Positions 2,739 to 18,733 of a stretch of 18,880 bases of DNA are shown here, piece by piece. A program made the translations under genes and the position numbers. This stretch comes from a virus. Taxonomy: Duplodnaviria; Heunggongvirae; Uroviricota; Caudoviricetes. Every line of letters starts with the position of its first letter. The stretch's first letter is position 1. Under the pieces are notes generated by a model, which was not told the origin of the DNA, ran no database searches, and was given only the letters and a program-made list of their open reading frames with translations. The DNA lies in IMG/VR virus record IMGVR_UViG_2740892422_000003, positions 1 through 18,880 of that record. One strand, given 5' to 3'.

Positions 2739-2889
2739 GTTTGTAGTTCGCAACTGTTGACAAACGACAATTTTAAAAATAATCTCTGAATTGTTTCGAA
2801 TGTAGATATTGATAATTGTCGTTTGTAGATTATTAACAACTATTGTCACCAACGCTCATTAGTGACAAACGAATGAGGAATTTTGCCGT
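2739..2889. promoter_or_regulatory. Lysis-lysogeny switch region with repeated operator-like motifs and a rightward promoter
   Basis: Between divergent cI and the early operon. An 8-9 bp motif GTTTGTAG / GACAAACG occurs in both orientations at about 2739-2746, 2757-2767, 2817-2828 and 2864-2871. A TTGACA (2757-2762), 17-nt spacer, TAATCT (2780-2785) arrangement is a sigma70-like promoter pointing toward the early operon. Confidence 0.55.
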
Positions 2890-3078
2890 ATGCAAACTAA
2901 AGCTGCAACACATTCAGAAAGCAGGTGGGTACCTCTGAAAACGTTTTGCGACAGGGTTGAAATAAAACTGCGCACGGGACGTTACTGGGTACACACTGGC
3001 AAACTCAAAATCAAACCTAAAAGCAAACCGAAAGAACATGTGTTTGTAGATTGGCTTGCGTGGAACAGTGAAAAGTAA
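2890..3078 (+). CDS. Small basic DNA-binding protein, Cro/Apl/Cox-like (62 aa)
   Basis: First gene of the rightward early operon, divergent from cI. Small and basic (KLKIKPKSKPKEH). The call rests on synteny with 186 apl and P2 cox, not on recognised sequence similarity. Confidence 0.5.
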   Translation: MQTKAATHSESRWVPLKTFCDRVEIKLRTGRYWVHTGKLKIKPKSKPKEHVFVDWLAWNSEK

Positions 3079-3121
3079 TCATCACTTTTAGTGATTTTGA
3101 GATTGGGATGGAAGAAAAACA

Positions 3122-3625
3122 ATGTTTGATTACCAGACCTCTAAACATGCGCACTTTGATGCGGCTTGCCGAGCATTTGCAATTGAGCACAATCTTGAAG
3201 ATGTGGCCGCTGCCGTTGGTATGAGGCCGCAGATCCTGCGCAACAAACTGAACCCAGCACAACCGCACCGCCTGACCTGTGATGAGCTTTTGGCTATCAC
3301 GGATTACACCGAAGATGCGCGTTTGCTTGATGGAATGTTAGGTCAGATTAACTGCCTTCCATCCGTGCCGGTGAACAATGCCACAGAAGGCAACATGCAG
3401 TTGTGCGCACTGAGTGCCACAGCCTGTGTGGGCGCGATTGCTGGGGAAGCCGTATCAACTGGCCATATGACTGCCGCCCGCCGTACTCAAATTCTGGATC
3501 GTGCCCGCGATGCAATCCGTAGCTTATCCGTGCTGGCTTATACCGTTGAAAGCCGTATTCACTCTGCGCCTGTTCTGGCCGCTGCGGTGGATCTGGCCAC
3601 AACCAACGCCACCGGCCTGATGTGA
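3122..3625 (+). CDS. cII: CII-like phage regulatory protein (phage 186 CII family)
   Basis: 167 aa, beginning MFDYQTSKHAHFDAACRAFAIEHNLEDVAAAVGMRPQILRNKLNP, with a predicted HTH. Same position and size as 186 CII. Confidence 0.75.
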   Translation: MFDYQTSKHAHFDAACRAFAIEHNLEDVAAAVGMRPQILRNKLNPAQPHRLTCDELLAITDYTEDARLLDGMLGQINCLPSVPVNNATEGNMQLCALSATACVGAIAGEAVSTGHMTAARRTQILDRARDAIRSLSVLAYTVESRIHSAPVLAAAVDLATTNATGLM

Positions 3626-3634
3626 GGGAACACC

Positions 3635-3808
3635 ATGAAAGCGTTTGTCACTTACCTGAAAAAAGAATCACCAGACATGCAGTTGCCGAGTGGTTCAACG
3701 GGATGGATAGAACTTCCGAACGGTCAGCGCTGGAACCCTGGCCACATGTACAAATTCAATGGCCAGCAGCCGCGTCGCCCATGGTGGCGTCGTCTGATGG
3801 GGCTATAG
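3635..3808 (+). CDS. Small hypothetical early protein (57 aa), not in the ORF track
   Basis: ATG at 3635 is preceded by GAGGGAA about 7 nt upstream, immediately after the cII stop. Translation is MKAFVTYLKKESPDMQLPSGSTGWIELPNGQRWNPGHMYKFNGQQPRRPWWRRLMGL. The overlapping frame (track ORF 3622..) gives a W/P-rich sequence that looks like out-of-frame noise. Confidence 0.4.
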   Translation: MKAFVTYLKKESPDMQLPSGSTGWIELPNGQRWNPGHMYKFNGQQPRRPWWRRLMGL

Positions 3809-3816
3809 GGGGCGTT

Positions 3817-4245
3817 ATGGCGATTAGCCAGGAACAGCAAAAGCGCGGGTTGGAGCATTGTAAAAGAATGCGTCTTCAGATCAACCCAGCCTACAGCGAT
3901 GCGGGGGACTGGTGGGACAACTTGACACCAGAGTGGCGCGGCGTGGTGCTTCATGCTGCTGCTGTTACTTCAGGTGCCGGGGTATTTAAAGCCCACTTAA
4001 GCAAATGCTGCTGGCAGGAACTTTATGAACGTCTGGGATATCGGGACATGATTCAACTACGACGGGGTATTTCACGGGCGCGCTTAACGTTCGAAGGTTT
4101 CGGCAGTTTACGTGACAGCGATTTTTCAAAGCGCACCGCGAACCGCCCGATCAAAAAGGCACATCCAATTTATAGCAGTAGCGGGGTGCAGATGGTGATC
4201 GCGCCTCATATCGTCCATAAGTTCCAGCAACAGGGGAATCACTAA
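3817..4245 (+). CDS. Hypothetical early protein (142 aa)
   Basis: Internal ATG of the track ORF 3622..4245, preceded by a G-rich RBS-like run. Its stop overlaps the start of the next ORF (ATGA). The start is ambiguous; in-frame ATGs at 3703 and 3781 are alternatives. Confidence 0.5.
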   Translation: MAISQEQQKRGLEHCKRMRLQINPAYSDAGDWWDNLTPEWRGVVLHAAAVTSGAGVFKAHLSKCCWQELYERLGYRDMIQLRRGISRARLTFEGFGSLRDSDFSKRTANRPIKKAHPIYSSSGVQMVIAPHIVHKFQQQGNH

Positions 4246-4646
4246 TGACCATTATTTCCGTTGAGGGTAAATCGTTGGGGGCTGAACTGGCTGTGTGGGG
4301 TGTCCCGCATAATTACGCTGTAGCGTTTGCAGCGAAAAGCACCAGTAAGAATGGCCGCATCGCTTTGCATCCGTTCTTCTTCAATGACACCGAGCACATG
4401 ACGAATCCGCGTCACTGGCTGGCGATCAATGCCGCTTTCTGGTGTTGCGTGTATCGCGAAGCTGAAAGCAAAGAAGCCCAGATAGAAGCGCTGGCGGGGA
4501 TTCGTGCAATTTTCTATACAGCTGGGGCGCTGGGTGTTGGCGAGATAAAAGCGCTGATCCAGGAGTGGTGGCGGACAACCTATGAGCTTCACCTGATTCC
4601 GGCACCGAACTACTCAGCCGCTACAGTACAACCCACTTTTCACTAA
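4245..4646 (+). CDS. Hypothetical early protein (133 aa)
   Basis: ORF translationally coupled to the upstream gene. No family recognised. Confidence 0.6.
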   Translation: MTIISVEGKSLGAELAVWGVPHNYAVAFAAKSTSKNGRIALHPFFFNDTEHMTNPRHWLAINAAFWCCVYREAESKEAQIEALAGIRAIFYTAGALGVGEIKALIQEWWRTTYELHLIPAPNYSAATVQPTFH

Positions 4647-4713
4647 TTAACAGCCTGAATTTTTTGGCCACGGTTCAAGTGGCCGGGGATTCTTTTGCCT
4701 TAAGGAAACCAAA

Positions 4714-4947
4714 ATGCACATGACACGTCAGGATTTACCCGCAACAAAATCAGGCACCGACCTGCTGGCCATGCTCACCAAAGCCACGCAGGAAGGTAAA
4801 GCCGCAGCTGCTGATCTGTGTTCCACACGTCTGGATAAGCTGGCCACCCATGCAGCCAATGAAGGTTTAAGCGCAGCGGAAATCGTTGAGTTAATCCGCG
4901 AAGAAGCCGCAGCGATTTGCAGCAAAGGCGGTGCGGCATGGCAATAA
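4714..4947 (+). CDS. Hypothetical small protein (77 aa), Ala-rich
   Basis: ATG preceded by AAGGAAA. Its 3' end overlaps the dam start. Confidence 0.5.
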   Translation: MHMTRQDLPATKSGTDLLAMLTKATQEGKAAAADLCSTRLDKLATHAANEGLSAAEIVELIREEAAAICSKGGAAWQ

Positions 4948-5798
4948 AAACTCCGCTTAAATGGGTGGGCAGCAAAGCCCGCCTTATGCCTAAGCTGCGT
5001 CCGCACCTTCCTGAAGGTAAACGCCTGGTTGAACCGTTCGCAGGTTCCTGCGCCGTCATGATGAATACGGATTATGACGATTATCTGATCGCAGATGTGA
5101 ATCCTGATCTGGTTAATCTTTATAAGGCGATGGCGTATCACACTGATGTGCTGCTGAATGAGCTGGAGAGCCTGTTTACTGCCGGTTCGTTAGGTGATGA
5201 AGAAAGCCGTGCCGTTTTCTATTACGCCGTGCGTGATGCTTTCAATCTTTCTGGTGGTAAGGCCGGTTCTGAATCTGTTGAAAATGCTGCGCGTTTCCTG
5301 TACCTGAATCGCCACTGTTTCAATGGCCTGTGCCGGTATAACCGCCGAGGCCAGTTCAACGTCCCGTTCGGTAAGTACAAAAAGCCTTATTTCCCCGCTG
5401 ATGAAATCCGCGCTTTTGCTGAAAAAGCGAAACGCGCAACGTTCATTACTGCCCACTATTCAGAAACGCTCGATTTGGTTCGGGACGGGAATGACGTTGT
5501 TTACTGTGATCCACCTTATCTGACTGAAAGCGATAATTTCACCGCTTACTATGGGCTCGGTTTTTCGCACATGGATCAGGGGAGGCTGGCGCGTAAGTTG
5601 CGCCGTCTGGCCAGAAAAGGCGTGCCGGTTGTGGCCTCTAATGCCGATCTGGAAATGGTGCATTACCTGTACGCCGGATTTGAAGCCGTTCGCATTAATG
5701 CCCCGCGTAGTGTTGGTGCCGCAGCTGCAAGCCAGAAAGTTGCTGCAGAGTTAATTCTGAAGTCGCCGCTTGATTCTATAGCGATGGCCTGCGCATGA
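4938..5798 (+). CDS. dam: DNA adenine methyltransferase (Dam-like, GATC N6-adenine MTase family)
   Basis: Motif I LKWVGSK, HLPEGKRLVEPFAGSCAVMMNTDYDDYLIADVNPDLVNLY, FLYLNRHCFNGLCRYNRRGQFNVPFGKYKKPYFP and catalytic DPPY (VVYCDPPYL) align closely with E. coli Dam as I recall it. Start set at the internal ATG (MAIKTPLKW); the track start at 4917 is an alternative. Confidence 0.9.
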   Translation: MAIKTPLKWVGSKARLMPKLRPHLPEGKRLVEPFAGSCAVMMNTDYDDYLIADVNPDLVNLYKAMAYHTDVLLNELESLFTAGSLGDEESRAVFYYAVRDAFNLSGGKAGSESVENAARFLYLNRHCFNGLCRYNRRGQFNVPFGKYKKPYFPADEIRAFAEKAKRATFITAHYSETLDLVRDGNDVVYCDPPYLTESDNFTAYYGLGFSHMDQGRLARKLRRLARKGVPVVASNADLEMVHYLYAGFEAVRINAPRSVGAAAASQKVAAELILKSPLDSIAMACA

Positions 5799-7816
5799 CT
5801 CCTGTCGCAAATGGCCAACATCATGCCGTCGATACCTGGCGGCGTGAAACGTTCGCACCGGGTACGCCTACAGACGCCACGATCACCGAGCGCCGCCTGT
5901 GGGCGGTTAATCCGCAGGATTACGAATGGCGCTCACAGTACCTGCATGAGATACCCGACTGGTTAGCCGGGTATTTTGGCCGTCGTTACGAAAAGCTTTT
6001 TTCTGGCCGTGACGGGCGTCGCCGTGCCAATACATTCCTGCGCAAAACAATCGGTGAGAATGTATTGCCACGTCTGCGCAAAGTGGCTGCGCGTTACTCG
6101 CTGGCCGCTGATGCTGCTGATCTTCCTTTTGGTAAGTCGCTGGAGCGCTTGCCGTCACTAGACCGTCCTGATCTTAAAAAACTGGCTGGCCAGGTATCTG
6201 GTTGGATTTCCCAGTCACTTTATGACTTCACCGAACAGTTTGATTCCGGCACTGACGATGCCAGAGAGCTGCATCGCCGCACCCTGGAATCTTACCGCCA
6301 TCTTTGTGCCTGTTGCCTGATGCTGAATAACCAGCCGCCGTACTGGACTGAACATGAGGCCAATGAAGGTCAACTGGAAATGCGTAAGGCGGAATCCGGG
6401 ATACTGCGCATGATGGCGCCGGAATGGTGGTACCTGCGTCTTAAACGTGCGCGTGATACGAAGCGCGAGCACATGGCCATTGCGGTGGGACAGGTGCAAA
6501 AAGCGGCCAGCGCTTATGTATCCCGCAAAACACTGGGCGAATGGATAGACCAGAAAAAGCGGAATCTGGAGTTCTTTAAAAAGTTTGATCTGCTGAATGA
6601 TGAGGGGCTGCGCATTGCACTGGACAGCCTGGTGCACCGCAGCGTTGCAAATCCGGCGATCCGTCGATGTGAACTAATGGTAAGAATGCGAGGGTTTGAA
6701 GATATGGCCAATGAAGAAGGACTGGCCGGTGAGTTTTACACCATCACCGCGCCATCACGTTTCCACGCAGTGCACAGCAAAGGTGGCTTTGTATCGCAAT
6801 GGGATGGATGTACGCCGCAGGATACCCAGCGCTATTTATGCGGCATATGGGCAAAAGCACGCGCAGCGATCTCGCGTGCGGGTATTCATGTATTTGGGTT
6901 TCGGGTTGTTGAGCCTCACCATGACGGGACACCGCACTGGCATATGTTGCTTTTTATGCGTCCGCATGACGTGGACACGGTACGCGATATTCTTTGCTAT
7001 CACGCCAGAATTACCGATTCTGAAGAACTGCAATCTGAAAAGGCGCTGAAGGCGCGTTTTCATGTTGAAGCGATCGATCCCGCCAAAGGTTCGGCCACGG
7101 GCTACATCGCGAAATACATTTCAAAAAATATTGATGGTTTTGCGCTGGATGGTGAGCAGGACGAAGAAACCGGCGAAAACCTGCGTGATATGGCTAAGTC
7201 CGTTTCCGCGTGGGCTTCACGCTGGCGTATTCGCCAGTTTCAGCAGATTGGTGGTGCGCCGGTAACTGTCTGGCGTGAGCTGCGTCGGTTGCGGGATCAG
7301 GTGCTGACCGATCGCAGAATGGATGCGGTTCTGGCCGCTGCTGATGTCGGTGACTGGGCTGCATATACCCAGGCGCAGGGCGGTGCACTGGTTGCCCGCC
7401 GTGATCTGGTTGTTCGTCTGGCCTATGAAATTACGGAACAGGGCAACGAGTACGCAGAGGACGTACAGCGCGTACAGGGGGTTTATTCTCCTTTAGTTCC
7501 TGATTCAGAAGTTTGCACCCGTCTGGTTAAGTGGCAAAAGGTTGCGAAGTTGGCCGAAGCGCCAGCGGAGGCGGGGTTTTCTGGCGGCAACGCCGCCCCT
7601 TGGAGTTCTGTCAATAACTGTACGGAGGGGGGAGCCCGCAGACGGTTAAAACTGGAATTACGCAGTCGGGGTTTTGAGGGTTCCGATGAAGAAATAGCCA
7701 TTCTCCTGCGGGGTAGTGGTTTGAGATTCGGTCAAGGGGCGCTGATTTACCGTAATGGGCGGCTTAAAGAGACTCAAAACGAGCCATTACAGGAGCTGTG
7801 GCCGGGGTGGGTGTAG
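5795..7816 (+). CDS. Rolling-circle replication initiation protein (P2 gpA / 186 A-like)
   Basis: 673 aa. Contains an HUH-type motif (HHDGTPHWHMLLF) and a downstream tyrosine motif (GYIAKYISKN) typical of P2 A-family nickases. Sits after the early regulatory genes as in P2/186. Start overlaps the dam stop (ATGA). Confidence 0.88.
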   Translation: MTPVANGQHHAVDTWRRETFAPGTPTDATITERRLWAVNPQDYEWRSQYLHEIPDWLAGYFGRRYEKLFSGRDGRRRANTFLRKTIGENVLPRLRKVAARYSLAADAADLPFGKSLERLPSLDRPDLKKLAGQVSGWISQSLYDFTEQFDSGTDDARELHRRTLESYRHLCACCLMLNNQPPYWTEHEANEGQLEMRKAESGILRMMAPEWWYLRLKRARDTKREHMAIAVGQVQKAASAYVSRKTLGEWIDQKKRNLEFFKKFDLLNDEGLRIALDSLVHRSVANPAIRRCELMVRMRGFEDMANEEGLAGEFYTITAPSRFHAVHSKGGFVSQWDGCTPQDTQRYLCGIWAKARAAISRAGIHVFGFRVVEPHHDGTPHWHMLLFMRPHDVDTVRDILCYHARITDSEELQSEKALKARFHVEAIDPAKGSATGYIAKYISKNIDGFALDGEQDEETGENLRDMAKSVSAWASRWRIRQFQQIGGAPVTVWRELRRLRDQVLTDRRMDAVLAAADVGDWAAYTQAQGGALVARRDLVVRLAYEITEQGNEYAEDVQRVQGVYSPLVPDSEVCTRLVKWQKVAKLAEAPAEAGFSGGNAAPWSSVNNCTEGGARRRLKLELRSRGFEGSDEEIAILLRGSGLRFGQGALIYRNGRLKETQNEPLQELWPGWV

Positions 7817-7896
7817 TTGTGTAAGTATGTGAAAGGCATTCATTTGTCAGTAGATGGCAGGAAAAAGCACTTTCACATTTTGTGCTTAAATGTATA

Positions 7897-7912
7897 CTGT
7901 GTTTATATACAG
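7897..7912. promoter_or_regulatory. LexA (SOS) box, CTGT-N8-ACAG
   Basis: CTGTGTTTATATACAG is a perfect match to the CTGT-N8-ACAG LexA consensus with an AT-rich centre. It overlaps candidate -10 elements (TATACT about 7893-7898, TATATA about 7904-7909). Confidence 0.7.
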
Positions 7913-7931
7913 TTATTCTGTTTTTGGGAGG

Positions 7932-8150
7932 ATGCTTGTGCAGGATTTGTTTTTGGAAACTATCGCATTGCAGCGGATTGCGTTGTTTACAAGGCTTATA
8001 GCTAAAAGTAATTGCACCGGCTGTGAGAAAGACATAGCACTTGCCTGGCTGAGCGAACTGACTTCAGATCTGGAAAGTAAGCTCGATGAGTATGAGAACA
8101 AAACCCCCAGTAATGGGGGCATTTCAGGCGGCGGGAGTCGCTTTCAGTAG
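7932..8150 (+). CDS. Small LexA-controlled ORF (72 aa), positional analogue of a Tum-like SOS antirepressor
   Basis: ATG at 7932 immediately follows GGGAGG and lies about 20 nt downstream of the LexA box. Translation begins MLVQDLFLETIALQRIALFTRLIAKSNCTGCEKD. Its 3' end overlaps the convergent ogr-like gene by about 27 nt. No sequence similarity to Tum recognised. Confidence 0.35.
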   Translation: MLVQDLFLETIALQRIALFTRLIAKSNCTGCEKDIALAWLSELTSDLESKLDEYENKTPSNGGISGGGSRFQ

Positions 8151-8447
8151 GTCTAATGCCATCTGGCGCTGATCGGGTGAAAGTGCATTCAGTATTTTTT
8201 GCACCATCGCATCACCCGTTTTAGCGCTGGGGCTGAGAGTGTGGGAGAACGTCAGATTCATAACAAACGTATGGCCACACTCAACATCTGAACAGGCGCA
8301 GTAAATATCCGCAATTTGCCGGTGCTTCCTGTTCGTTTTACGAATAACAGCCTTTGAGCCGCATTCCGGGCATTCGATTTTCAGAACTCGCATATTCCAT
8401 GCTCCAGCTGTTAAATGATGCCTGGATTTTAGCCTGTTTCGCCTCAT
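8124..8447 (-). CDS. ogr: Ogr/Delta-family zinc-finger late transcription activator
   Basis: Contains CPECGSKAVIRKTNRKHRQIADIYCACSDVECGHTF, matching the Cys4 pattern of P2 Ogr / 186 B (CPxC ... YxQCxNxxCxxTF). The track start overlaps the portal stop (ATGA); an internal Met (MRVLKIECPECG) directly before the zinc finger is an alternative start. Confidence 0.8.
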   Translation of the reverse strand: MRRNRLKSRHHLTAGAWNMRVLKIECPECGSKAVIRKTNRKHRQIADIYCACSDVECGHTFVMNLTFSHTLSPSAKTGDAMVQKILNALSPDQRQMALDLLKATPAA

Positions 8448-9505
8448 GCCGCACCCTTATCCGTTGATTCTGTGTAACTTAAATCAAAGTTAAGGTGTAG
8501 CCTTTCCGGTATTTCGGGATCGTTGTTAACGGCCAGCATGAAACGGCGCTGGATGGGGGCTATTTCGCTTTTCTTGTAAATGCGTTCAGCCTTTTCAACA
8601 TCCCCCAGTCCGGCAGTGTTCTGCGGGACAATACCGGCGAGGCCAGCAGGGAAACGGTGCGCGTTCAGAATGTCCTGGGCGCTGATGTTTTTGATGTTGG
8701 CAAATTCATCCTTCGCGGAAATATCCCCCATTTCAATGAATTTGATTGCGTCACCGTCTCCACCAGGAATGTTTACAAGGATGGTGGAGAAGTTACCGAT
8801 CCCTTTGCTGTCACGCAGCTGCTGTTCAATTTCTTCCTCCATTTCGTCCGTCATGCTGGGATCGCGGGTATAAAGAATACCGCCAGTGTGCGCACCGTTG
8901 TGGTAATAGCGGCGTCGGAAAATGACCGCTTCACTGTTTAGTAACGCGGAATGCACGCCGCCGATGTAGTCCGGCAGTCCGTAGATATGCTGTTGCGGGT
9001 CATACATTTTGATGAAGATAATATCTTCTTCTGGCCATACCTGCGGTTCTCCTTCCTGTAACACCACGTAGTCACCGGGCTTATCCTGGGCGTTATCTCT
9101 GACTTTGCGGCGGCGAATATACAGACCGGGCAAGGGTTCAAGTGCGATCACGTCGCCCCAGCCGTTACGAATTTTGGCAATTGCAATATCCCCAAAGGTT
9201 ATATAGTCAAACGCTGCCGCTTCCAGCTGGTCGTGAATAAGCCCGCCCCCCTGGTAGTCTGAAACAATCATGTTTTTGCGGGCGTGAATGATGCCGCCGT
9301 GCTGACCGTTAAGATTAATCAGCTGTGCGAGTGCCAGCCGGTCAATCGGCTGGGTGAAGTGATCGGCGGCATTGTCGTACCAGATATCACGATAATCTGT
9401 GCCGGTAGTCAGAACCGGTTCAGGTTTGCCGAATGTGATAATGCTCATCTTTTTTGATTTGTCGCCGCGCTGGTCGCGCTTAACAAAGCGTTTCTTTTTA
9501 CTCAT
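8444..9505 (-). CDS. Capsid portal protein (P2 gpQ-like)
   Basis: 353 aa, same size and position as P2 Q (downstream of and overlapping the terminase gene, divergent from scaffold/capsid genes). Basic N-terminus (MSKKKRFVKRDQRGDKSKK). Confidence 0.8.
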   Translation of the reverse strand: MSKKKRFVKRDQRGDKSKKMSIITFGKPEPVLTTGTDYRDIWYDNAADHFTQPIDRLALAQLINLNGQHGGIIHARKNMIVSDYQGGGLIHDQLEAAAFDYITFGDIAIAKIRNGWGDVIALEPLPGLYIRRRKVRDNAQDKPGDYVVLQEGEPQVWPEEDIIFIKMYDPQQHIYGLPDYIGGVHSALLNSEAVIFRRRYYHNGAHTGGILYTRDPSMTDEMEEEIEQQLRDSKGIGNFSTILVNIPGGDGDAIKFIEMGDISAKDEFANIKNISAQDILNAHRFPAGLAGIVPQNTAGLGDVEKAERIYKKSEIAPIQRRFMLAVNNDPEIPERLHLNFDLSYTESTDKGAA

Positions 9506-11277
9506 GCTGCCTCTTTCCTTACACCCCAGCGGGATTTAGGTTTGTTTTCATAGTTAAGGGGTTCGTTATGCAGACCGTGGGTAATCGCCCAGAACGCCTC
9601 CGCGTGGCCAGTATCCTGGCTGCGGTCAGCGACAAACGTCATGGCGTTGCCGCTTTGTGTGGTGGTTCGGCGCACAGACATAAAGCTGGCCGCGATCTCT
9701 TTCAGGTTTTTATCCCACTCAATACGCTGGCTTTCCACCACGTCCACCGCTTTCAGTACCAGTTGATTTTTAGTGTTCAGGTCGTAACGAATAGGGACGG
9801 CCACGCGCATGGCAAAATGCTGAATGTTGTCAAAAACACCCTGGCCAATGCCGGTAACGTCCACCCCCAGATAAGTGAAGTTGTATTTTTTGAACAACTG
9901 CTCGATCTGTTTTGCCTGATACCGGAAGTTCATGCCTTTCCAGTAAATCACCTTCAGAACGCGGAACTTCTCCACGGCGAGCATCGGTGGAGCGATGATG
10001 ACAAAACAGGACAAATCACCGCTGCGAGCCGGGTCAAAGCCACCCCATACAGGTCTGTCACCGAATGGCCGCGCTGCATCAGGATTGTGATCCTGCCAGG
10101 TGTCGATTTCAACGCCGCAGGCTTCCAGATCGGAAAAGCTGAAAACGGAATCTTTGCTGTCAACGAACACGCACATATAGAGCATGTTAAAAGTGGCGTC
10201 GTTGTAGCGGTTGCGAAGTTTCTCGATGTTCGCCAGGTTGAAACCGCCCGCAATGGCATCTTCCATCGTAATGACGTAGCGCCATTGCCCATCCGGGCAG
10301 AGTCGCCCACCGTCACGCATTTCGTTAAAGGAAGGAAACTTAATGGCCGCACGTTTTTTACTGCCCTGTTTCCACTCATCGCCCGTCCAGAACGGGTACG
10401 CCTGGTGCGTTTTTGCCGATGGCGTTGAAAAATAGGTGGTACGCCACTTGTCATGCGTGGCCATTGCGCTGGCCACTTCGTTAAGTTTTGCAAAGTTTGG
10501 TACCCAGAAATATTCGTCACAGTACAGGTGGCCGCTGTAGGACTGGGCGGTGTTTTTGTTGGTGGAGAGAAAACGCAGTTCTGCGCCGTTGCTTAAGCGG
10601 ATCGGGTTGCCGGTCAGCGTAATACCGAAATACTGCTCTGCAATATTCACGATGTAAGACCGGAACACTTCAGCCTGAGCCTTTGACGCTGACAGAAAGA
10701 TTTGCGGATCGCCGGTCATCACCGCGTTTTCAAACGCTTCAAACGCAAAATACCAGGTTGCACCGATCTGGCGGCTTTTCAGGATGTTCCTGACAAGCTG
10801 GCCAATGTTATTGCGCAGGTGTTTCTGATATTCAAAAAGATGTTCCTCAGCCCATGCGTCAAAGTCCTCCTGCGTCAGCGAGGTAATATCGTTTTTCTTG
10901 TACTTCCGTTTGCTGCGCGGTTCGTCGTCATTGTTGTCCCGTGCAGTTGCTTGCCCGGAACTCTGACCGCTGGCCATTTTCTCTTTATGTTTATTACTCT
11001 GCGCACGCAGTTTGGTGGCATGAGTAATGAGCATGTCCATTTCTTTCAGGTCGAGATCGGTTTTGTTATCGCGGCTGGCCAGCAGCTGGTAACGGCGTTC
11101 AATCGCTTCCTCTGTGCTTTCAAAACTGAGCAAATCCGCCCAGCTGTATTTCTCCGCCCAGTAGTAAACGATCCGCGCATTCGGCAGATTTAATTCAGAT
11201 GCGATTTCCTTTGGCGTATAGCGGCGCAGATAAAGTGCGCGAACAACGCCTTTTAATTCTTCAGAGTATTTAGCCAT
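9502..11277 (-). CDS. Terminase large (ATPase) subunit (P2 gpP-like)
   Basis: 591 aa (P2 P is about 590 aa). Divergent from the scaffold gene across a short control region and followed by the portal gene with a 4-nt overlap, as in the P2 head module. Confidence 0.82.
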   Translation of the reverse strand: MAKYSEELKGVVRALYLRRYTPKEIASELNLPNARIVYYWAEKYSWADLLSFESTEEAIERRYQLLASRDNKTDLDLKEMDMLITHATKLRAQSNKHKEKMASGQSSGQATARDNNDDEPRSKRKYKKNDITSLTQEDFDAWAEEHLFEYQKHLRNNIGQLVRNILKSRQIGATWYFAFEAFENAVMTGDPQIFLSASKAQAEVFRSYIVNIAEQYFGITLTGNPIRLSNGAELRFLSTNKNTAQSYSGHLYCDEYFWVPNFAKLNEVASAMATHDKWRTTYFSTPSAKTHQAYPFWTGDEWKQGSKKRAAIKFPSFNEMRDGGRLCPDGQWRYVITMEDAIAGGFNLANIEKLRNRYNDATFNMLYMCVFVDSKDSVFSFSDLEACGVEIDTWQDHNPDAARPFGDRPVWGGFDPARSGDLSCFVIIAPPMLAVEKFRVLKVIYWKGMNFRYQAKQIEQLFKKYNFTYLGVDVTGIGQGVFDNIQHFAMRVAVPIRYDLNTKNQLVLKAVDVVESQRIEWDKNLKEIAASFMSVRRTTTQSGNAMTFVADRSQDTGHAEAFWAITHGLHNEPLNYENKPKSRWGVRKEAA

Positions 11278-11437
11278 GCGGATAATTATGCCGTGGCTGT
11301 GATGAAAAAACGGTGGTGTTAATTCGTGTCCGTTCGGTAAAGCGTTATAACCGAACTGTTCAGAATAAAGCGTAATGCAGTGGCGGTTTTATTTGGCAAT
11401 AATTGATTTGCAGCGTCAGGGAGTGGAACAGGGGGAT
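11278..11437. promoter_or_regulatory. Divergent late-promoter region between terminase (leftward) and scaffold (rightward) genes, containing a dyad symmetry element
   Basis: Inverted repeat GTTCGGT-N11-ACCGAAC at about 11332-11356, embedded in TGTCCGTTCGG...CCGAACTGTTCAG. It lies between two divergently starting late operons, where P2-type late promoters carry the activator-binding dyad. Confidence 0.5.
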
Positions 11438-12241
11438 ATGTCACATTTAAAAACTGACTGGCTGTGTGTTGCTACTGAAGGGGATACCGTTGACGGCAGG
11501 GTAATTAAACGGCAGTGGATCATTGATATGGGGGAAACCTATGACTATAGCCACTATGTCGCTTTAATCTGGCCAGAACATGAGGATGATTGCGGAAATT
11601 TTGGTGAAGTGCTGGAAGCCACCTGGAATGATGGTGAAGATGGACTGGCACGGTTATATGTCAGCCTTTGCCCGAATATGCGTCTGATTTTCGCAAATCA
11701 TGAAGATCAGCTTTTGTTCTTCTCCATTGAGCCGGAAGAAAACTGGCGCGGTAGCGGGCGTACTTACCTGAAAGGGCTGGCGGTAACAGATACACCTGCC
11801 AGCGTTGGCACCACACGGCTGCGCTTTAGTAGTCGGCGCAATAAATTAACAAAGCAGGGATATTACAGCTGTGTAATTTCCCATGACGGAAAAATTAAAC
11901 AGGAAGCAAGAATGAAGAACTGGCAGAAACTGTTTGGTCTTAAACCAAAGTTTGAAGATGAAACGCCGCAGGATAATCCTGCCCCGGATGAAGATAAATT
12001 ACAGGCGCTTGCCAATGTGGTTAACGATCTGGAAGCGCGTGTGGCGAAAATTGAAACTCAACTGAATGACGTTCAGGGTGATGTTGACACAATCGCTGAA
12101 GTGGTGGATACGCAGGAATTTGCGGCAATTCGCGATAATGCAAAAGAAATCGTAACCCGCTTTAACGATTTGGGTAATAAAAACCCCCGTACACCGGGGC
12201 GTACTATTAAAGATAAAGCCGGGAAATTTAATTTCCTGTAA
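11438..12241 (+). CDS. Capsid scaffolding protein (P2 gpO-like)
   Basis: Internal ATG preceded by AGGGGGA. N-terminal VATEGDTVDGRVIKRQWIIDMGETYD resembles the P2 O N-terminus (GVEGDTCDGRVI...) as I recall it, and YLKGLAVTDTPASVGTTRLRF resembles the conserved gpO protease-like segment. The track ORF begins 63 nt upstream at 11375. Confidence 0.8.
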   Translation: MSHLKTDWLCVATEGDTVDGRVIKRQWIIDMGETYDYSHYVALIWPEHEDDCGNFGEVLEATWNDGEDGLARLYVSLCPNMRLIFANHEDQLLFFSIEPEENWRGSGRTYLKGLAVTDTPASVGTTRLRFSSRRNKLTKQGYYSCVISHDGKIKQEARMKNWQKLFGLKPKFEDETPQDNPAPDEDKLQALANVVNDLEARVAKIETQLNDVQGDVDTIAEVVDTQEFAAIRDNAKEIVTRFNDLGNKNPRTPGRTIKDKAGKFNFL

Positions 12242-12303
12242 TTCGCTTTATTGCTGATTAGTCCAGAACATATTTTTAAATCGCTTAATTGCGAGGGAGT
12301 TTT

Positions 12304-13326
12304 ATGCACCTTAATAATCGTGCGCGGGATTTACTGGATAAATATTCGGCGGGGATGGCGCAGCAGTTTGGTGCGCGTGATACCAGTCGATATTTTTCCC
12401 TGAATGACCCGCAGGAAAATGCGCTGCGTCTTGCGTTGCTGGAATCCGTCGAGTTCCTGAACATGATCACCTGTCTGGATGTTGACCAGCTGAGTGGCCA
12501 GGTGATCTCTGTCGGTTCTTCCGTGCTGCATACCGGCCGCAGCGAAAATGGCCGTTTTATTCGTCAGGTAGGCGTTGACGGTAATGACTATTCCCTGGTT
12601 GAAACAGACAGCTGCGCCGCACTGCGCTGGGATCTGCTTTCTGTCTGGGCAAACGCCGGTAAGGACGAAAACGAATTTTACAACCTGGTACAGGCATTCA
12701 CCACGCAGGCTTTTGCGCTGGACATGTTGCGCATTGGTTTCAATGGTAAGAGCCGGGCGAAAACCACTGATCCGGTAGCAAACCCGAACGGTGAAGATGT
12801 GAACATCGGCTGGCATGAGCGTATGAAAACGCTGCTGGGCGGCAATCAGATTATGACGGATGCCGTGGTGCTTGATGAGGCCGGGGATTACAAGTCACTG
12901 GATGCAATGGCGTCCGATCTGATTAACGCCAAAATCCCGGCGCAGTTCCGCAATGACCCGCGTCTGGTTGTCCTGGTCGGTGCCGATCTGGTCGCTGCTG
13001 AACAGTACCGACTGTATCAGGCGGCAGACCGTCCGACTGAAAAAATTGCTGCGCAGATGCTGGGAAGTACCATTGCTGGCCGTCAGGCCATTATCCCGCC
13101 GTTTATGCCGGGTAAACGCATGGTGGTTACGCCGCTTTCTAACCTGCACATCTACACCCAGCGCAATACCCGTATGCGTAAGGCGGAGTTTGTTGAAGAT
13201 CGTAAGCAGTTCGAAAACAAATACCTGCGCAATGAAGGTTACGCGGTGGAAGTGCCGGAGCTGTATGCGGCCATTGATGAATCCGCAGTGACGATCGGCA
13301 AAGTCTCCGAACCGGTGGAGGGCTGA
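12304..13326 (+). CDS. Major capsid protein (P2 gpN-like)
   Basis: About 340 aa from the ATG preceded by GAGGGAG. Segments FNGKSRAKTTDPVANPNGEDVNIGWHE and GDYKSLDAMASDLIN resemble recalled P2 N sequence. Directly follows the scaffold gene. Confidence 0.85.
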   Translation: MHLNNRARDLLDKYSAGMAQQFGARDTSRYFSLNDPQENALRLALLESVEFLNMITCLDVDQLSGQVISVGSSVLHTGRSENGRFIRQVGVDGNDYSLVETDSCAALRWDLLSVWANAGKDENEFYNLVQAFTTQAFALDMLRIGFNGKSRAKTTDPVANPNGEDVNIGWHERMKTLLGGNQIMTDAVVLDEAGDYKSLDAMASDLINAKIPAQFRNDPRLVVLVGADLVAAEQYRLYQAADRPTEKIAAQMLGSTIAGRQAIIPPFMPGKRMVVTPLSNLHIYTQRNTRMRKAEFVEDRKQFENKYLRNEGYAVEVPELYAAIDESAVTIGKVSEPVEG

Positions 13327-13329
13327 TAA

Positions 13330-15222
13330 ATGGCACTTTCCCCCGCGCAGCGTCACAGCCAGCGCATTGCGATGGAACAAAAGCTGAAACGCAGCCAGGC
13401 ACTGGAAACCACGGAAAGTATGCACCTGCTGATCAGGGCGTTGGAAACAGATGTGGAACACGTTCGAAGTCTGCCTACCATCGCCGATCGCGTCGAGTAT
13501 AAACGCGATGTGCTGTTAATGATGAAACCAGTAAAACGCCTTTACCTTTCAACGGATGAAGTTCACCTGGTGGATGCCAGCCTGGTACTGGAGCTGAACA
13601 GCTGCGGCCGGGGCTTCATCACCGCAGAGACAACAACCGATTACACCGGAAAACTGGTGCGGCTGGATGTGGGGTATACCGATCTGCTTTTGCGCTGGTT
13701 TACGGGGTATGTGGAGCGATCACAGCCCGCAGAAAACGGTTTTCAGCGTCTGTTCATTCGTGAGCTGGCAGGTGTGTTTGAAAGGATGTGGCCGTGTTCG
13801 TTTCAACACCCGACTTTGCGAGAAATTGCGGGCTGGCTGGAAGAAAACAGCGGGATCACAGTCAGTGTGCCTGATGCACAGTACAGCGATACCCCCATCC
13901 CACATTTTACCCATAACGGTACTGGTTATCAGTTGCTGAACAATCTGGGCAGGGCGTTCAGTATCCAGGATTACATCTGGTACCAGTTGCCTGATGGTTC
14001 GCTTTACGTCGGCGGCGCAGAAAAATCATTGTTTGCCGGTCGTCCCGTAGAAATCCCGTCAGAGTTCAGCCAGGGGGCTGCTGGCGGTAACTCTGTGACA
14101 TTACCAGTGATCCAGACTATGCGGCCAGGGGTGGAGATGAACGGTGAACGCGTGACTAAAGTTCACCTGACGAATGACACGATGGCGATCACATGGACGC
14201 CGAGAAACCGCGCAACGGGTAAACCTTTGCAGAAAACACCGGCGCAACGGCAGATTGAAAGCCATTACCCGGAACTGGCATCCGGGCTTCATTTGCCAAA
14301 GATGGCCAGAGTCGTGGCGCATTCAGAGCCAGTAAAAAGCGGTAACTTTGCCGATCCCTTCCGGCCACGTTACGCAGTGGACGTGCAGCTGCTTGACGCA
14401 GACGGAAACCCGGACAATCAGACGCCTGTTTACTCAGCGGTGCCGCTGCCGGTGCCAATGGCCGGGAATGATTCAGGTATGTTTCAGTTCCCGCCAGAAG
14501 GGACGCTGGTTGAGGTTGCATTCACGGGAGGCAGACCGGATAAACCCTTTATCAGGCAGACGCTGCCGGATGGTACCAGCCTGCCGGACGTTAAACCCGG
14601 TGAGCAATTGCAGCAGCAGCGGGAAGAAGTTTCCCAGCGGGTGACTCAGGCAGGAGACTGGGTAAGACAGACCGATCAGACCATCAGTGAAACATCGATG
14701 GTGCGAACGGTAAAGGCCGATACGGAACAGCGCGAACTGGTCAGCCGTGAAACCACGGTGAAAGCCACGGATAAAACTACGGTACTGGGAACCGCCACAC
14801 TGCTGGCCGGAGCTATTCAGCAGGTAAGCGCCGGTGATTATAGCCAGGCGGTGAAAGGTAACAGACTGGCCAGTATTGAAGGAAACGAAGAAACGGACAT
14901 AGCAGGACAGCAGTCCACTAAAGTGGGCGGTGCTGTAGCCGTGGAGGTTGGCGAAAGCCTGACAGAGAAAATTGCCGCACTGCGTAAATCAGTGGCCGCT
15001 GGCGGTCAGCAGGTCATGGGGGCAACTGTCCATATTGGCAGTGAGAGTATCAACGCCCTGACCATGATGCTGGATACCATTGATTTACTGGCAGATCTGG
15101 CGCAGCAATGCGCGAGCCATTCGCACCCCACCGTTGGGACGCCAACCAATGCCGCCGCGTTCACACAGACGGCGACGAAAGCCGGGCAGACCCGGAGCAA
15201 GTACCAGGGGATCATTGCTTAA
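13330..15222 (+). CDS. Chimeric 630-aa protein: small-terminase-like N-terminus (gpM-like) joined to a baseplate central-spike-like C-terminus (gpV/gp5/VgrG-like OB fold plus His-containing apex)
   Basis: Starts 4 nt after the capsid gene stop, with GGAGGG upstream. The N-terminus MALSPAQRHSQRIAMEQ resembles the start of P2 gpM (MTSPAQRH..., from memory). The C-terminal half has an OB-fold spike signature (FQFPPEGTLVEVAFTGGRPDKPFI), a repetitive T/V/K-rich segment (TVKADTEQRELVSRETTVKATDKTTVLGTA) and an HxH element near the end (CASHSHPTVGTP). Confidence 0.6.
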   Translation: MALSPAQRHSQRIAMEQKLKRSQALETTESMHLLIRALETDVEHVRSLPTIADRVEYKRDVLLMMKPVKRLYLSTDEVHLVDASLVLELNSCGRGFITAETTTDYTGKLVRLDVGYTDLLLRWFTGYVERSQPAENGFQRLFIRELAGVFERMWPCSFQHPTLREIAGWLEENSGITVSVPDAQYSDTPIPHFTHNGTGYQLLNNLGRAFSIQDYIWYQLPDGSLYVGGAEKSLFAGRPVEIPSEFSQGAAGGNSVTLPVIQTMRPGVEMNGERVTKVHLTNDTMAITWTPRNRATGKPLQKTPAQRQIESHYPELASGLHLPKMARVVAHSEPVKSGNFADPFRPRYAVDVQLLDADGNPDNQTPVYSAVPLPVPMAGNDSGMFQFPPEGTLVEVAFTGGRPDKPFIRQTLPDGTSLPDVKPGEQLQQQREEVSQRVTQAGDWVRQTDQTISETSMVRTVKADTEQRELVSRETTVKATDKTTVLGTATLLAGAIQQVSAGDYSQAVKGNRLASIEGNEETDIAGQQSTKVGGAVAVEVGESLTEKIAALRKSVAAGGQQVMGATVHIGSESINALTMMLDTIDLLADLAQQCASHSHPTVGTPTNAAAFTQTATKAGQTRSKYQGIIA

Positions 15223-15319: not shown

Positions 15320-15874
15320 TCAAGTAGTGGTAATTGTATGGCTTTTGCGGGTTATATAAACGCTATTGGCGGGTACGTCTCTGTTAACGAATGACATTGC
15401 GCCAATTGTCACGTTATCACCAATGGTTAGATCATCACCGATGATGCACGAATTTGCACCAATCTCCACATTGTCTCCGATCCTGATGGCTTTGATTCCC
15501 TCAACCGTTTTTAATCCAATTGTTGTGTTTTGTCGGATACGCACATTCTTACCAATCACAGCCTGGGGGCAAATGACTATTCCAACGAAATGATAAATTT
15601 TGAATTTTTCCCCTATCTGTGCCCCCAACCCAATATCAGTATTGTATTTTGAAACAAGTCTCCTATGGATTCTTCGCGCCCATTTCACTCTTGCTCTCCC
15701 ACCCTGGCAGTAAAGGCAATTCGCTATTCTCCACCAACACATGAACCTGTATCCGGGCTGTCTCCAGCAACGTAGTATGATTCTTCTCCATGAGAATTTT
15801 TTACTGTTGCTCAGTATGTCCGCGCACAATAACTGCTTCATTTCCTCGTAGTGAGATATTTTGCTGCTGCTCAT
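15320..15874 (-). CDS. Hexapeptide-repeat (left-handed beta-helix) acetyltransferase, WcaB/CysE-like sugar O-acetyltransferase family
   Basis: Tandem hexapeptide repeats (IGKNVRIRQNTTIGLKTVEGIKAIRIGDNVEIGANSCIIGDDLTIGDNVTIGAMSFV) and an N-terminal region similar in pattern to WcaB-type acetyltransferases. Lower GC than the phage core. Start is ambiguous (ATG at 15874 or 15841; the track ORF begins with TTG at 15889). Confidence 0.8.
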   Translation of the reverse strand: MSSSKISHYEEMKQLLCADILSNSKKFSWRRIILRCWRQPGYRFMCWWRIANCLYCQGGRARVKWARRIHRRLVSKYNTDIGLGAQIGEKFKIYHFVGIVICPQAVIGKNVRIRQNTTIGLKTVEGIKAIRIGDNVEIGANSCIIGDDLTIGDNVTIGAMSFVNRDVPANSVYITRKSHTITTT

Positions 15875-16661
15875 AAATTGTCCGTCCAAATAATCCTGAC
15901 GGTTATCGTAACATGGGAATGGTCTGATTTTCTGCTAACAGCACAACACTAGGCTATGTGGTTCGGTCTGATAGTGGGCTTCTTCATCCAAAATGATTTA
16001 GTTGGGTTACCAACACAAATCTATTTCTCACATCGTCATAGGCGTCACCAGACGCATTTTAAACCCTTTAGTAACAAACCCTACCCCGCGCACCAAGTGT
16101 AAAAGATCCGAAGCGTGGCGTGGCGCTGGTAGGGTCATATGATGGCGAAATAAATCTTTCGCAGACAAAAACGGCGCTACACCGCACCCGCCTGCGGTTT
16201 CTGGATCTGGAAATTTTTTCAGTTTTATTTTTCTACAAACCAGACCGCCAGACCGCACCATTACTGGCGGCTTTGCAGATAATCAGAACTGAAATGATTG
16301 AAAAGAATTTCAGTGTTTTTCACTTTCATGGATCTGTGGAGGATCGAATACAAAATGTAACCAGCAGAAAAATAAGGGGAAATAATTTTTTTGTGAGTGG
16401 GAAGGATCGTTTTTGTTTTCTGGTTGTTTTCGTCGTAGAAAAGCCGAGGCCAGATTTAGCAAGGCATAGGGACAATTAGAAGGTTCATAGAAAACTGAAA
16501 AAACTGCATGCATGTCGTGGAAACTAGCGAGCTAACAATTGCATCGAAATCTAATTTTAATCTTGGAACTTGAGAAAACTTTTGTCAAATTAGTTGTCGC
16601 TTTTTAGTTGTGGATATCCTTCCGATGTTTACTTGGCAGAGCTTACATTAAGGCATTCGAT

Positions 16662-17780
16662 ATGACTGAAAAATTCACCGCAATTTTGTTAGATACGAGT
16701 ATCTACGATCAGTACGGATTAAAGCTTGAGAAAGGACTGCTGGGTAAGCTTTCCCAGTTCAGCAGAACCCCGACAACGTTTTTGATACCGGATGTAATTT
16801 ACAATGAAGTTAAAAATCATCTTGAAAGAAAAATCAAGACATCACGTGGCTCCCTTGAGAAAGCTTTCGAAGAAGCTGGCGATCATCTTTTTTTTGATGG
16901 AAGCGAACTAAATGATGCAAGAAAAACATTGATTGAAAGCAGAGAAGTTGAAGGATTAGGAAAGAGCAGATTAGACAGATTTGTTGGCGTAACAGATGCG
17001 AAGGTTCTAACTACAGGGGATTATGTTTCGGTACCTGAACTCCTTGAACGATACTTCTCTTCTGAAGCTCCTTTCGCAGATACAGGTAAGAAAAAAAATG
17101 AGTTTCCCGATGCAATAACATTAATGGCCGTCCAAGCCTGGGCTAAAGAGAATGGTGAAAATGTTCTTGCTGTAGCAAGAGATGACGACTGGCAGAGATT
17201 TTGTATTGATGCTGAGAATTTGCACTATGAACCTGACTTATCAAACGCTTTAGCACACTTCAATGAAGAAACCGCACCTTATGAACTAATTGATAACTTA
17301 CAAAAAGCACTTGCTGAAGGACAAGCCGGTAAATTCTTGCATGATGTTGCTGTACACCTTGAGTCAACCTTTGAAGGATTTGCACCAGAACAAGAGGCAG
17401 ATTCATATTTATACTGGGAGGCTGACGGATGCTCAGGTGGATTTGAAGATTTTGAGTTTACAGATAACCACTTCACTGTCATCGACAAGGATGAAAACTG
17501 GGTTGTTATAGAAGCATTTGCAGACATTTCACTTTACGCAGAAGGTGATTTCTCCCTATCGGTTTACGATTCATTCGACAAAGACCATGCTTACATGGGG
17601 TCAATTACCAAGCGAGCCGAGGAAACATATACATCCAGAATACTTATCACAATCTCCGGAGACTTATCAGGTTCTATAGATGATTTGACCGTTGACGATG
17701 TGGAAGTGATCGAGCGTCCAACGTCGATGGATTTTGGGGAGCTTGAATTAGAGTATGAGCCTGACGAGCAAGACTTGTAA
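16662..17780 (+). CDS. PIN-like domain protein with a strongly acidic C-terminal region (372 aa)
   Basis: Start at the ATG (MTEKFTAILLDTSIYDQYG) preceded by TAAGG. The N-terminus has a PIN-like acidic signature (ILLDTSIY; later EFPDAITLMAV, ARDDDW). The C-terminal roughly 150 aa are very D/E-rich (EADGCSGGFEDFEFTDNHF...DDLTVDDVEVIERPTSMDFGELELEYEPDEQDL). Low GC. Confidence 0.65.
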   Translation: MTEKFTAILLDTSIYDQYGLKLEKGLLGKLSQFSRTPTTFLIPDVIYNEVKNHLERKIKTSRGSLEKAFEEAGDHLFFDGSELNDARKTLIESREVEGLGKSRLDRFVGVTDAKVLTTGDYVSVPELLERYFSSEAPFADTGKKKNEFPDAITLMAVQAWAKENGENVLAVARDDDWQRFCIDAENLHYEPDLSNALAHFNEETAPYELIDNLQKALAEGQAGKFLHDVAVHLESTFEGFAPEQEADSYLYWEADGCSGGFEDFEFTDNHFTVIDKDENWVVIEAFADISLYAEGDFSLSVYDSFDKDHAYMGSITKRAEETYTSRILITISGDLSGSIDDLTVDDVEVIERPTSMDFGELELEYEPDEQDL

Positions 17781-17884
17781 CAACTATGATTAGGCACTAT
17801 CGCTGTCGCCATTTTGTCGCCAACTCGATTGCAGTTTCGTTGTAACTAATTGAATTTAATCTTTTTTATTTTCAGGCAACAAAA

Positions 17885-17915
17885 AACCCATCATCTTTAG
17901 AGCATGATGGGTTTA
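17885..17915. terminator. Bidirectional rho-independent terminator between convergent cargo genes
   Basis: AAAAAA, then stem CCCATCAT, a 9-nt loop, stem ATGATGGG, then TTTA, at about 17881-17915 between the PIN-like gene (ends 17780) and the convergent HEPN-like gene (ends 17924). Confidence 0.6.
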
Positions 17916-17923
17916 TAACTTGC

Positions 17924-18733
17924 TTATTCTTTTTTTTCATCCCACGATTCAAGAATAAACATAGTTAGTGTATGTGCAGCATTGATGGCTAATCGTGCGT
18001 GTCGGGGCTTGAGATTGTAAATTTTTCGTCCTGCGCCATGAGCTGAACTCGCATGAGTTCTTAGCGAGCCGATACCATCGGTGAGAGAATATAAGCCGCT
18101 CAAAATGCGTTTTAAGTCCTCATCTTCTACCGCTTTAGTGTCAAGACCTAAATGTTCACGAACGGTCTTCCACAAGCCCTGCAAATCCTGCTTCGCAGGA
18201 ATCGGTAGGTTTTCATCTGCGATAAAAATTTTAAATGTTGATTCTAATATATTACAGGCTGCTGATACTGCTTCTCTTGGGTCAGTATGCAAGTTTTCTA
18301 AAGCTCTTGCGAATTCCATTTCTACTGCTGGAGTATTACGTTTCTGGATAGCTTCTTTCAAGGAAAGGGATGCTAGTGATGCTCCATCAGTAATGTAACC
18401 GCCAGTCACATAGTTCAGCCCATAACGACCAAGTAGTTCCGGCATTTTTTTAACAAACTCGACTTTCTTTTTTTCCCACTCATAGTATGGATTGGCGGGT
18501 AACTCTGACTCCATATAGGTTTCGATTAAGCGACCAAGTAAAACTAATGGTTCATCAGATTCTTTATTAATACGCCTTAACCATTCGAGAGCTTTAACGT
18601 GCTTAGATCCTTCGGGTGGTTCCCCTGGCGCATCAGCATAGGCAAACAAACTATCCAAACTAGCATGGGTTTCAGTGCTAGCAACGAAGTCAGCTACAAC
18701 AGATATTACAGGTTGAGGTATTGGCCGTCCCAT
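17924..18733 (-). CDS. HEPN-like / abortive-infection (Abi_C-like) protein (269 aa)
   Basis: The C-terminal segment GSLRTHASSAHGAGRK fits the HEPN R-x(4-6)-H motif found in Abi_C-type domains, followed by NAAHTLTMFIL. Low GC. Lies next to the right att repeat. Confidence 0.6.
   Translation of the reverse strand: MGRPIPQPVISVVADFVASTETHASLDSLFAYADAPGEPPEGSKHVKALEWLRRINKESDEPLVLLGRLIETYMESELPANPYYEWEKKKVEFVKKMPELLGRYGLNYVTGGYITDGASLASLSLKEAIQKRNTPAVEMEFARALENLHTDPREAVSAACNILESTFKIFIADENLPIPAKQDLQGLWKTVREHLGLDTKAVEDEDLKRILSGLYSLTDGIGSLRTHASSAHGAGRKIYNLKPRHARLAINAAHTLTMFILESWDEKKE

Follow-up and report, generated by a model that had tools for sequence, protein, structure and literature searches.

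A conserved inverted repeat between the divergent head operons of an ESSI-2-like prophage is a candidate Ogr-type activator site for two late promoters

The window (the whole stretch of 18,880 nucleotides analyzed here, IMG/VR record IMGVR_UViG_2740892422_000003) carries a P2-family prophage (Peduoviridae, ESSI-2/Quadragintavirus-like) in which the terL and portal genes diverge from the scaffold and capsid genes. The genes for an Ogr/Delta zinc-finger protein, the portal and TerL are on the minus strand, and those for the scaffold and capsid proteins are on the plus strand. The early side comprises an integrase, a 186-type CI, a CII of the CP76 family, a Dam-type methylase and a GpA replicase. 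Across the region of the dyad described below, the window is 98.5% identical to Escherichia phage ESSI2_ev129 (Peduoviridae, Quadragintavirus), and when 5426 complete E. coli genomes were searched, 29 also proved to carry an ESSI-2-type region. The genes considered here are:

130..1143, minus strand: 337-aa open reading frame adjoining the integrase (1150..2163), with no Pfam or PADLOC match
8124..8393, minus strand: Ogr/Delta-family zinc-finger activator (PF04606), at the end of the leftward operon, candidate binder of the dyad
8444..9505, minus strand: portal (P2 gpQ homologue), colinear with the ev129 gene annotated as portal
9502..11277, minus strand: terminase large subunit TerL (P2 gpP homologue), 591 aa (Pfam Terminase_6N, Terminase_6C and Terminase_5)
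11438..12241, plus strand: GpO capsid scaffold/protease (Pfam Phage_GPO, E = 2e-35)
12289..13326, plus strand: major capsid protein (P2 gpN family), colinear with the gene for the P2-family major capsid protein in the ev129 annotation
15320..15889, minus strand: hexapeptide acetyltransferase, beyond the late-operon remnant
16608..17780, plus strand: PIN_12-domain protein, 390 aa, with no PADLOC match
17924..18733, minus strand: Abi_C/AbiJ-like protein, 269 aa (PADLOC AbiJ, E = 9e-17)

The terL start codon at 11277 (minus) and the gpO start codon at 11438 (plus) delimit an intergenic gap, 11278..11437, of exactly 160 bp, the length that the preliminary description had given for the region from which the terminase/portal and scaffold/capsid operons diverge. 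The N-terminus of TerL could be aligned with that of P2 gpP. The annotated gene starts of two relatives are at odds with the conserved alignment. In ESSI-2 (NC_047854) terL is annotated from 17321, across the intergenic dyad, and the annotated scaffold gene of ev129 (NC_049394) begins at an internal start codon and has 714 nt, vs. 804 nt in the window.

The prophage is defective. Relative to ev129, ∼13.1 kb (positions 1939..15056 of the ev129 locus) are absent from region 13330..15222 of the window, with the junction at about 13515-13517. The deletion begins within the small terminase gene and ends where the last baseplate gene starts, and the tail, lysis and head-completion genes are all gone. 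At the junction, the first ∼62 codons of terS are fused in frame to a gpD-like baseplate gene, which generates a 630-aa open reading frame with weak matches to Phage_base_V and Gp5_C. No one-piece match across the junction was found in the complete E. coli RefSeq genomes; in E. coli strain EcPF15 it was matched in two pieces ∼1.2 kb apart, possibly a different deletion. Owing to the 13-kb deletion, the element between the head operons is perhaps a relic here, even if functional in intact relatives, and the biological stakes for the window are low because the prophage lacks tail and lysis genes. The three genes at 15320..18733 may be defence cargo, in either the terminal part of the prophage or flanking host DNA. 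Like the window with its acetyltransferase gene, ev129 has an annotated serine acetyltransferase moron.

The ogr-like gene implied by the preliminary description lies at 8124..8393. Its product matched PF04606 with 70.8 bits (cut-off 26.3, E = 9.2e-20) over the full length of the domain (1-47 of 47), is most likely 89 aa long, and consists of a single Ogr-like domain with a C-terminal extension. The zinc-binding motif quoted for Ogr/Delta, CX2CX22CX4C (PMC3931495), is present as CPEC-X22-CSDVEC. When aligned with P2 Ogr and 186 B, the protein was 26-27% identical and all four cysteines were invariant, and the low identity between the cysteines fits a changed DNA specificity. A search of the PDB for a structure of the Ogr family returned none. 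The stretch at about 8099..8145 contains a hairpin, aaaacccccagtaatggggg, and, after it, GGCGGCGGGAGTCGC. This element, which would overlap the last codons of the ogr-like gene, resembles the P2/186 cos junction, with its hairpin and 19-nt cohesive end (GGCGAGGCGGGGAAAGCAC), and is a possible candidate cos site as judged from its sequence.

The gene order terL-portal-ogr is constant in four complete relatives (ev129, ESSI-2, YenM324 and ev239), and in the IMG/VR loci listed the Ogr-family gene is syntenic with the dyad wherever the locus is long enough. In the same four phages, the remaining late genes form one long co-directional block that starts at the scaffold gene. With only two late gene blocks, these phages appear to need two late promoters, both in the terL-gpO gap. 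The immunity/replication module of ev239 is different (no CII, a regulator of the size of P2 C, and a primase replacing GpA), and the dyad and the Ogr-like gene are kept.

The dyad GTTCGGT-N11-ACCGAAC, which had been claimed within 11325-11360, is present at 11332..11356. It is the inner part of a larger imperfect palindrome, whose arms (11319..11338 and 11350..11369) are 20 nt each, 70% complementary and 11 nt apart. Four half-sites can be recognized in it, with the layout TTCGT-N5-TTCGG-N13-CCGAA-N5-CAGAA (11323..11365). The elements of the gap are:

11285..11290, minus strand: predicted -10, CATAAT, of the leftward (terL-portal-ogr) late promoter, at a conserved offset of 47 (±1) from the inner-left half-site
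11319..11369, no strand: whole imperfect palindrome with four half-sites, from a repeat search
11323..11327, no strand: auxiliary half-site TTCGT on the outer left, 10 bp beyond the inner-left half-site, with a conserved TTC core
11332..11356, no strand: core dyad GTTCGGT AAAGCGTTATA ACCGAAC, centre 11344, read directly from the sequence
11333-37 and 11351-55, no strand: core TTCGG and CCGAA, conserved in relatives
11333-41 and 11347-55, no strand: extended half-sites TTCGGTAAA and ATAACCGAA, which match WTWnCCGAAY in the half-site position weight matrix (PWM)
11361..11365, no strand: auxiliary half-site CAGAA on the outer right, 10 bp beyond the inner-right half-site, with a conserved GAA core
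11376..11378, plus strand: conserved TGC in the rightward -35 region, from the information-content profile
11396, plus strand: conserved G at -14 of the rightward promoter, from the alignment
11398..11403, plus strand: predicted -10, AATAAT, of the rightward (scaffold-capsid and onward) late promoter, at offset 47 from the inner-right half-site

As a single sequence, the dyad is not significant and is compatible with chance. The window contains 40 perfect inverted repeats with 7-bp arms (spacers 0-20) vs. ∼27 expected from Markov-1 random sequences, and such a repeat turns up in ∼12% of 160-bp regions of random sequence. A shuffle test of the exact dyad sequence was post hoc and is not relied on. 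The dyad is raised above chance by the conservation of its sequence, position and geometry in ∼80 related loci.

In five phage records from four genera (Quadragintavirus, Seongnamvirus, Tresduoquattuorvirus and Evevirus), TTCGG-N13/14-CCGAA is kept and the surrounding intergenic DNA is divergent. A scan of bacterial genomes with the TerL N-terminus as the query, taking one genome per species, yielded 49 loci, 48 of which extend to the intergenic region; their hosts range from Escherichia to Photorhabdus, Xenorhabdus, Providencia, Morganella, Serratia, Erwinia and others. The core was found at the expected place with two mismatches or fewer in 46 of these 48 phylogenetically non-independent loci (no mismatch in 28, one in 14 and two in 4), and the flanks diverge. 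It was absent from the two most distant of the 48, those of Pseudoalteromonas and Agitococcus. For two of the 14 one-mismatch loci (Ewingella, L025 and L028), the scored match is another dyad-like element close to the left -10; the right arm of their homologous site reads CCGAT. One contig labelled 'MAG: Bacillota bacterium' (JAEWTL010000126.1) encodes a TerL N-terminus 99% identical to that of the window and carries an identical dyad; it is probably mis-binned or a contaminant.

When IMG/VR was searched blind for a 14-base form of the motif, at least 80 loci were returned. At least 32 of them encode both terL and gpO homologues, and among those listed the motif lies between the two genes in all, with TerL identity down to 43%. 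The other 48 matches listed, which lack terL or gpO, are mostly inside long open frames of unrelated contigs of varied GC content. In none of these 48 is the match flanked on each side by a -10-like hexamer at one of the conserved offsets (37 or 47 bp), and they look like chance matches. No P4-like satellite with a TTCGG dyad was present among the IMG/VR matches listed. The inverted repeat between the head operons is real and deeply conserved.

A dyad-anchored ungapped alignment of 44 loci was used to locate the conserved positions. Information content peaks at the inner half-sites and at two -10-like blocks, GCATAAT on the minus strand and G-n-AATAAT/AATACT on the plus strand. Further conserved blocks are the outer TTC and GAA cores, 10 bp outside the inner half-sites, and the TGC in the right -35 region. 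In the Xenorhabdus loci, the outer-left half-site is a perfect TTCGG. When the half-sites were pooled, the model WTWnCCGAAY was obtained, whose central T is shared by all 100 half-sites. A PWM scan detected exactly one site in each of the complete ev129, ESSI-2, YenM324 and ev239 genomes (29-34 bits), and no second non-overlapping match of at least 8 bits, hence no further late promoters with the site, in these four. No comparable site was detected when P2 and 186 were scanned. The left-arm variants TTCGC, TTCGA, ATCGG and ATGGG occur among the 48 bacterial loci with no compensating change in the right arm. These uncompensated variants, together with the unremarkable hairpin stability reported below, point to selection on the half-site sequence, as for a protein site.

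The preliminary description had pointed to the dyad that P2-family late promoters carry upstream of -35, and the conserved -10-like hexamers on both sides of the present dyad agree with such a position. All -10 and start-site assignments are consensus-based. The -12 bases, 11290 on the left and 11398 on the right, are each 47 bp outside the inner half-site and are mirror-symmetric about 11344. The rightward hexamer at offset 47 reads AATAAT, AATACT or GATACT in the relatives. The rightward -35 hexamer, ATGCAG (11375-80), is poor, with two of six matches to TTGACA, and the leftward -35 was also judged poor by eye. A consensus scan of 11150..11550 found no full sigma-70 promoter, and the lack of a sigma-70 promoter with a good -35 in the gap fits activator-dependent promoters. 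From the sequence, rightward transcription is predicted to start at about 11410 and leftward transcription at 11277/11278, that is, either at the A of the terL start codon or at the base preceding it. CATAAT lies 7 nt from the terL ATG in the window (6-7 nt in relatives) and there is no Shine-Dalgarno sequence, so that a leaderless terminase mRNA is predicted in most of the clade. P2 offers a precedent for a leaderless late mRNA, as the annotated PV start is the first base of gene V.

The spacing between the dyad and the -10 is constant, whereas the terL start codon follows the -10 after 6-7 nt in most loci and after as much as about 33 nt in others. A longer leader, of about 20-33 nt and with a Shine-Dalgarno sequence, precedes terL in the ev239-like and Erwinia/Mixta loci. 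A fixed dyad-to--10 distance despite a variable start codon is what would be expected if the promoter elements were coupled to an upstream activator on one face of the helix.

Three offset classes were observed. In the large majority of loci the offsets are 47/47, the outer half-sites are present, and the predicted dyad centre is about -66. Morganella/Providencia-type loci and several viral contigs have offsets of 37/37 and no outer half-sites; both -10s are 10 bp closer to the dyad, whose predicted centre is about -56.5. A few loci have a 47/37 layout with a mixed dyad centre. The outer GAA is present on 96 of the 120 promoter sides with offset 47 vs. 3 of the 18 with offset 37 (Fisher p = 3e-7, kinship ignored). 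The half-site nearest the promoter has its predicted centre near -47 whether the offset is 47 or 37, and the proximal ACA of P2 is at about -48. The asymmetric 47/37 layout is found, with the CCGAT right arm, in Ewingella and an uncultured Enterobacterales MAG (L025, L027 and L028). The leftward -10 of these loci (ATTATG) is adjoined or overlapped by a further element resembling the dyad, CTTCGGATAACGTCCATAACCGTAA, which may be an additional autoregulatory or repressive site.

A consensus for the Ogr family, TGT-N12-ACA, has been quoted, and a shared site has been described for PP'/PO' of Smp131 (PMC3931495). In the P2 record, a single "activator binding site; pO, pP promoters" is annotated (3057..3087), and the mapped starts are at 3016 (minus) and 3127 (plus). 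The centre of the TGT..CCA dyad, about 3072.5, is 56.5 and 54.5 bp from these starts. The 186 record likewise annotates one B-protein site (3798..3817) for "activation of pV and p12 promoters". Given the shared sites of P2, 186 and Smp131, one dyad for both divergent promoters is an established architecture of the family. The proposal that a single dyad might serve both promoters gains support from the single site per genome, the mirror-symmetric -10s and the similar annotations of P2 and 186.

P2-family late promoters carry a site with the consensus TGT-N12-ACA centred near -55 and depend on an Ogr-family protein and on the alpha subunit of RNA polymerase (rpoA109). To our knowledge, TGT-N12-ACA is the sole DNA motif of the Ogr/Delta family and the one site of that family defined by experiment. 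The suggested comparison with the late promoters of P2 and 186 thus gave a divided result: the shared-site design is common to all, but the consensus is not matched. TGT-N12-ACA is absent from 11278..11437, and its three matches across the whole window, below the chance expectation of 5.2, are all outside the gap. As in the window, P2 has a single dyad between the terminase-portal and scaffold-capsid operons, equidistant from two -35-poor promoters, and a phage-encoded Ogr-family zinc-finger activator, and the relatives of the window without outer half-sites, with the predicted centre at about -56.5, are close to the -54.5 and -56.5 of P2. In contrast, the site of the clade is TTCGG-N13/14-CCGAA (WTWnCCGAAY) rather than TGT-N12-ACA, and the window has four half-sites with a predicted centre near -66 for both promoters, counted from the -10s, rather than near the canonical -55. 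P2 uses three sites for four promoters (those of PV and PF besides PP/PO), whereas the clade has one site per genome, and ogr follows tail gene D in P2 but the portal gene in the window. Phage 186 shares with the window one annotated site that activates both divergent homologous operons, as well as the 186-type CI and CII early module; however, its site reads GTTGTGTGGGCGGTTGTCCA and gave no score with the ESSI-2-type PWM, and its B protein is 27% identical to the Ogr-like protein.

In the satellite P4, whose Delta protein is a tandem duplication of the Ogr fold, the multi-site late promoters Psid and PLL illustrate that a single promoter can have more than one adjacent site for the Ogr family, which sets a precedent for higher-order occupancy, for instance of four half-sites. 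The P4 sites follow TGT-N12-ACA, unlike the dyad of the window, and the window protein of 89 aa is single-domain. In class I activation by CRP, the sites are at -61.5, -71.5 and so on. The present case would be similar in its working, with a symmetric dimer site that precedes a -35-poor promoter and is tolerated only at positions one helical turn apart (37 vs. 47), but the protein family and the sequence are unrelated, and no membership is implied.

From sequence and analogy, we consider it probable that the dyad is the inner pair of a four-half-site activating sequence, bound by the Ogr-like protein and serving both divergent late promoters. The reading as a late-activator site, as put forward in the preliminary description, is thereby supported, with three amendments: the dyad does not follow TGT-N12-ACA, it is only the inner pair of four half-sites, and its predicted centre is near -66 instead of -55. 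We infer the binder from position, synteny and analogy with P2 and 186: the Ogr-family gene is the only regulator homologous to the P2/186 site binders, is syntenic with the dyad, and is co-retained with it in ev239. In the proposed mechanism, (i) the Ogr/Delta-type protein of the phage would bind the symmetric site, either as one dimer or in a larger assembly (two dimers or a tetramer) in which the outer half-sites are engaged as well; (ii) the bound protein would recruit RNA polymerase to the two -35-deficient promoters, as P2 Ogr does via the alpha subunit; (iii) the -10s CATAAT (11290..11285) and AATAAT (11398..11403), 47 bp outside the inner half-sites, would place the dyad centre near -66 and a promoter-proximal outer half-site near -47 on each side; and (iv) as the ogr-like gene ends the leftward operon, activation would feed back positively.

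Binding of the dyad by another protein, such as an Enterobacterales host transcription factor or nucleoid protein, or a Cox/Apl-like, CI or CII protein, is unlikely. The dyad is indeed unlike any known Ogr, B or Delta site, its assignment to the Ogr-like protein is by analogy, and a conserved host factor could also explain conservation across many host genera. However, the dyad lies about 56 or 66 bp upstream of two -35-poor divergent promoters, copying the mapped Ogr/B sites, and occurs once per phage genome, exactly at the late promoters. It is kept in ev239, which has no CII and a different type of repressor, and we know of no resemblance to the IHF consensus (WATCAANNNNTTR) or to Cox boxes. 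Another binder would also be less parsimonious than the Ogr-like protein. Still less probable, and in our view very much so, is an operator that silences the late promoters in the lysogen, or a negative autoregulatory site. Symmetric operators are common, and the second dyad-like element of the Ewingella loci, which overlaps the left -10, illustrates that such sequences can occupy repressive positions, but the dyad of the window is about 40 bp upstream of both -10s and does not overlap a core promoter. Moreover, promoters without a good -35 need activation rather than repression, and spacing quantised in steps of 10 bp is typical of activation that depends on the face of the helix.

We give almost no credence to a hairpin, terminator or cruciform, a packaging (cos) signal, or a chance repeat. 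The perfect 7-bp inverted repeat and single-sequence statistics compatible with chance would be expected of such elements, but conservation in ∼80 loci is beyond chance. The predicted hairpin (minimum free energy -11.5 kcal/mol) has z = -1.0, 32 of 200 shuffles fold equally well, and the changes in the arms are not compensatory, so that the hairpin reading was rejected. There is no T-run, a scan of 11150..11550 for intrinsic terminators found nothing, and the dyad is upstream of both predicted starts. A role as cos or packaging site was rejected because a cos-like hairpin with the G-rich motif GGCGGCGGGAGTCGC lies elsewhere, at about 8099..8145, the P2-equivalent location.

With activation by the Ogr-like protein as the preferred reading, the design is known from P2, and the recognition sequence and layout are most likely new. 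No description of the late promoters of ESSI-2-like phages, nor binding, footprint or start-site data for them, was found in the searchable literature. A broader proposal is more tentative, and we regard it as possible rather than probable: the ESSI-2-like branch may have a distinct Ogr recognition code (WTWnCCGAAY) and a modular bidirectional enhancer, in which a half-site plus one helical turn has been gained or lost independently on each side (47/47, 37/37 and 47/37). A higher-order complex (two dimers or a tetramer) might then occupy the four half-sites, with the proximal subunit at about -47 throughout, and a late programme of ∼20 kb, a leaderless terminase mRNA and feedback on ogr might all be governed from one 45-bp element.

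If confirmed, the site would be a second DNA recognition sequence for the Ogr/Delta zinc-finger family. The clade forms a natural series of promoter layouts (offsets of 37 or 47 bp, with or without outer half-sites), which could be used to dissect the contacts that a small zinc-finger activator makes with RNA polymerase when it is placed on different turns of the helix and acts in both directions simultaneously. The motif and its geometry provide a clean marker of the late-promoter region of ESSI-2-like prophages across Enterobacterales, and predict that the whole late programme of these phages would be run from one bidirectional control element.
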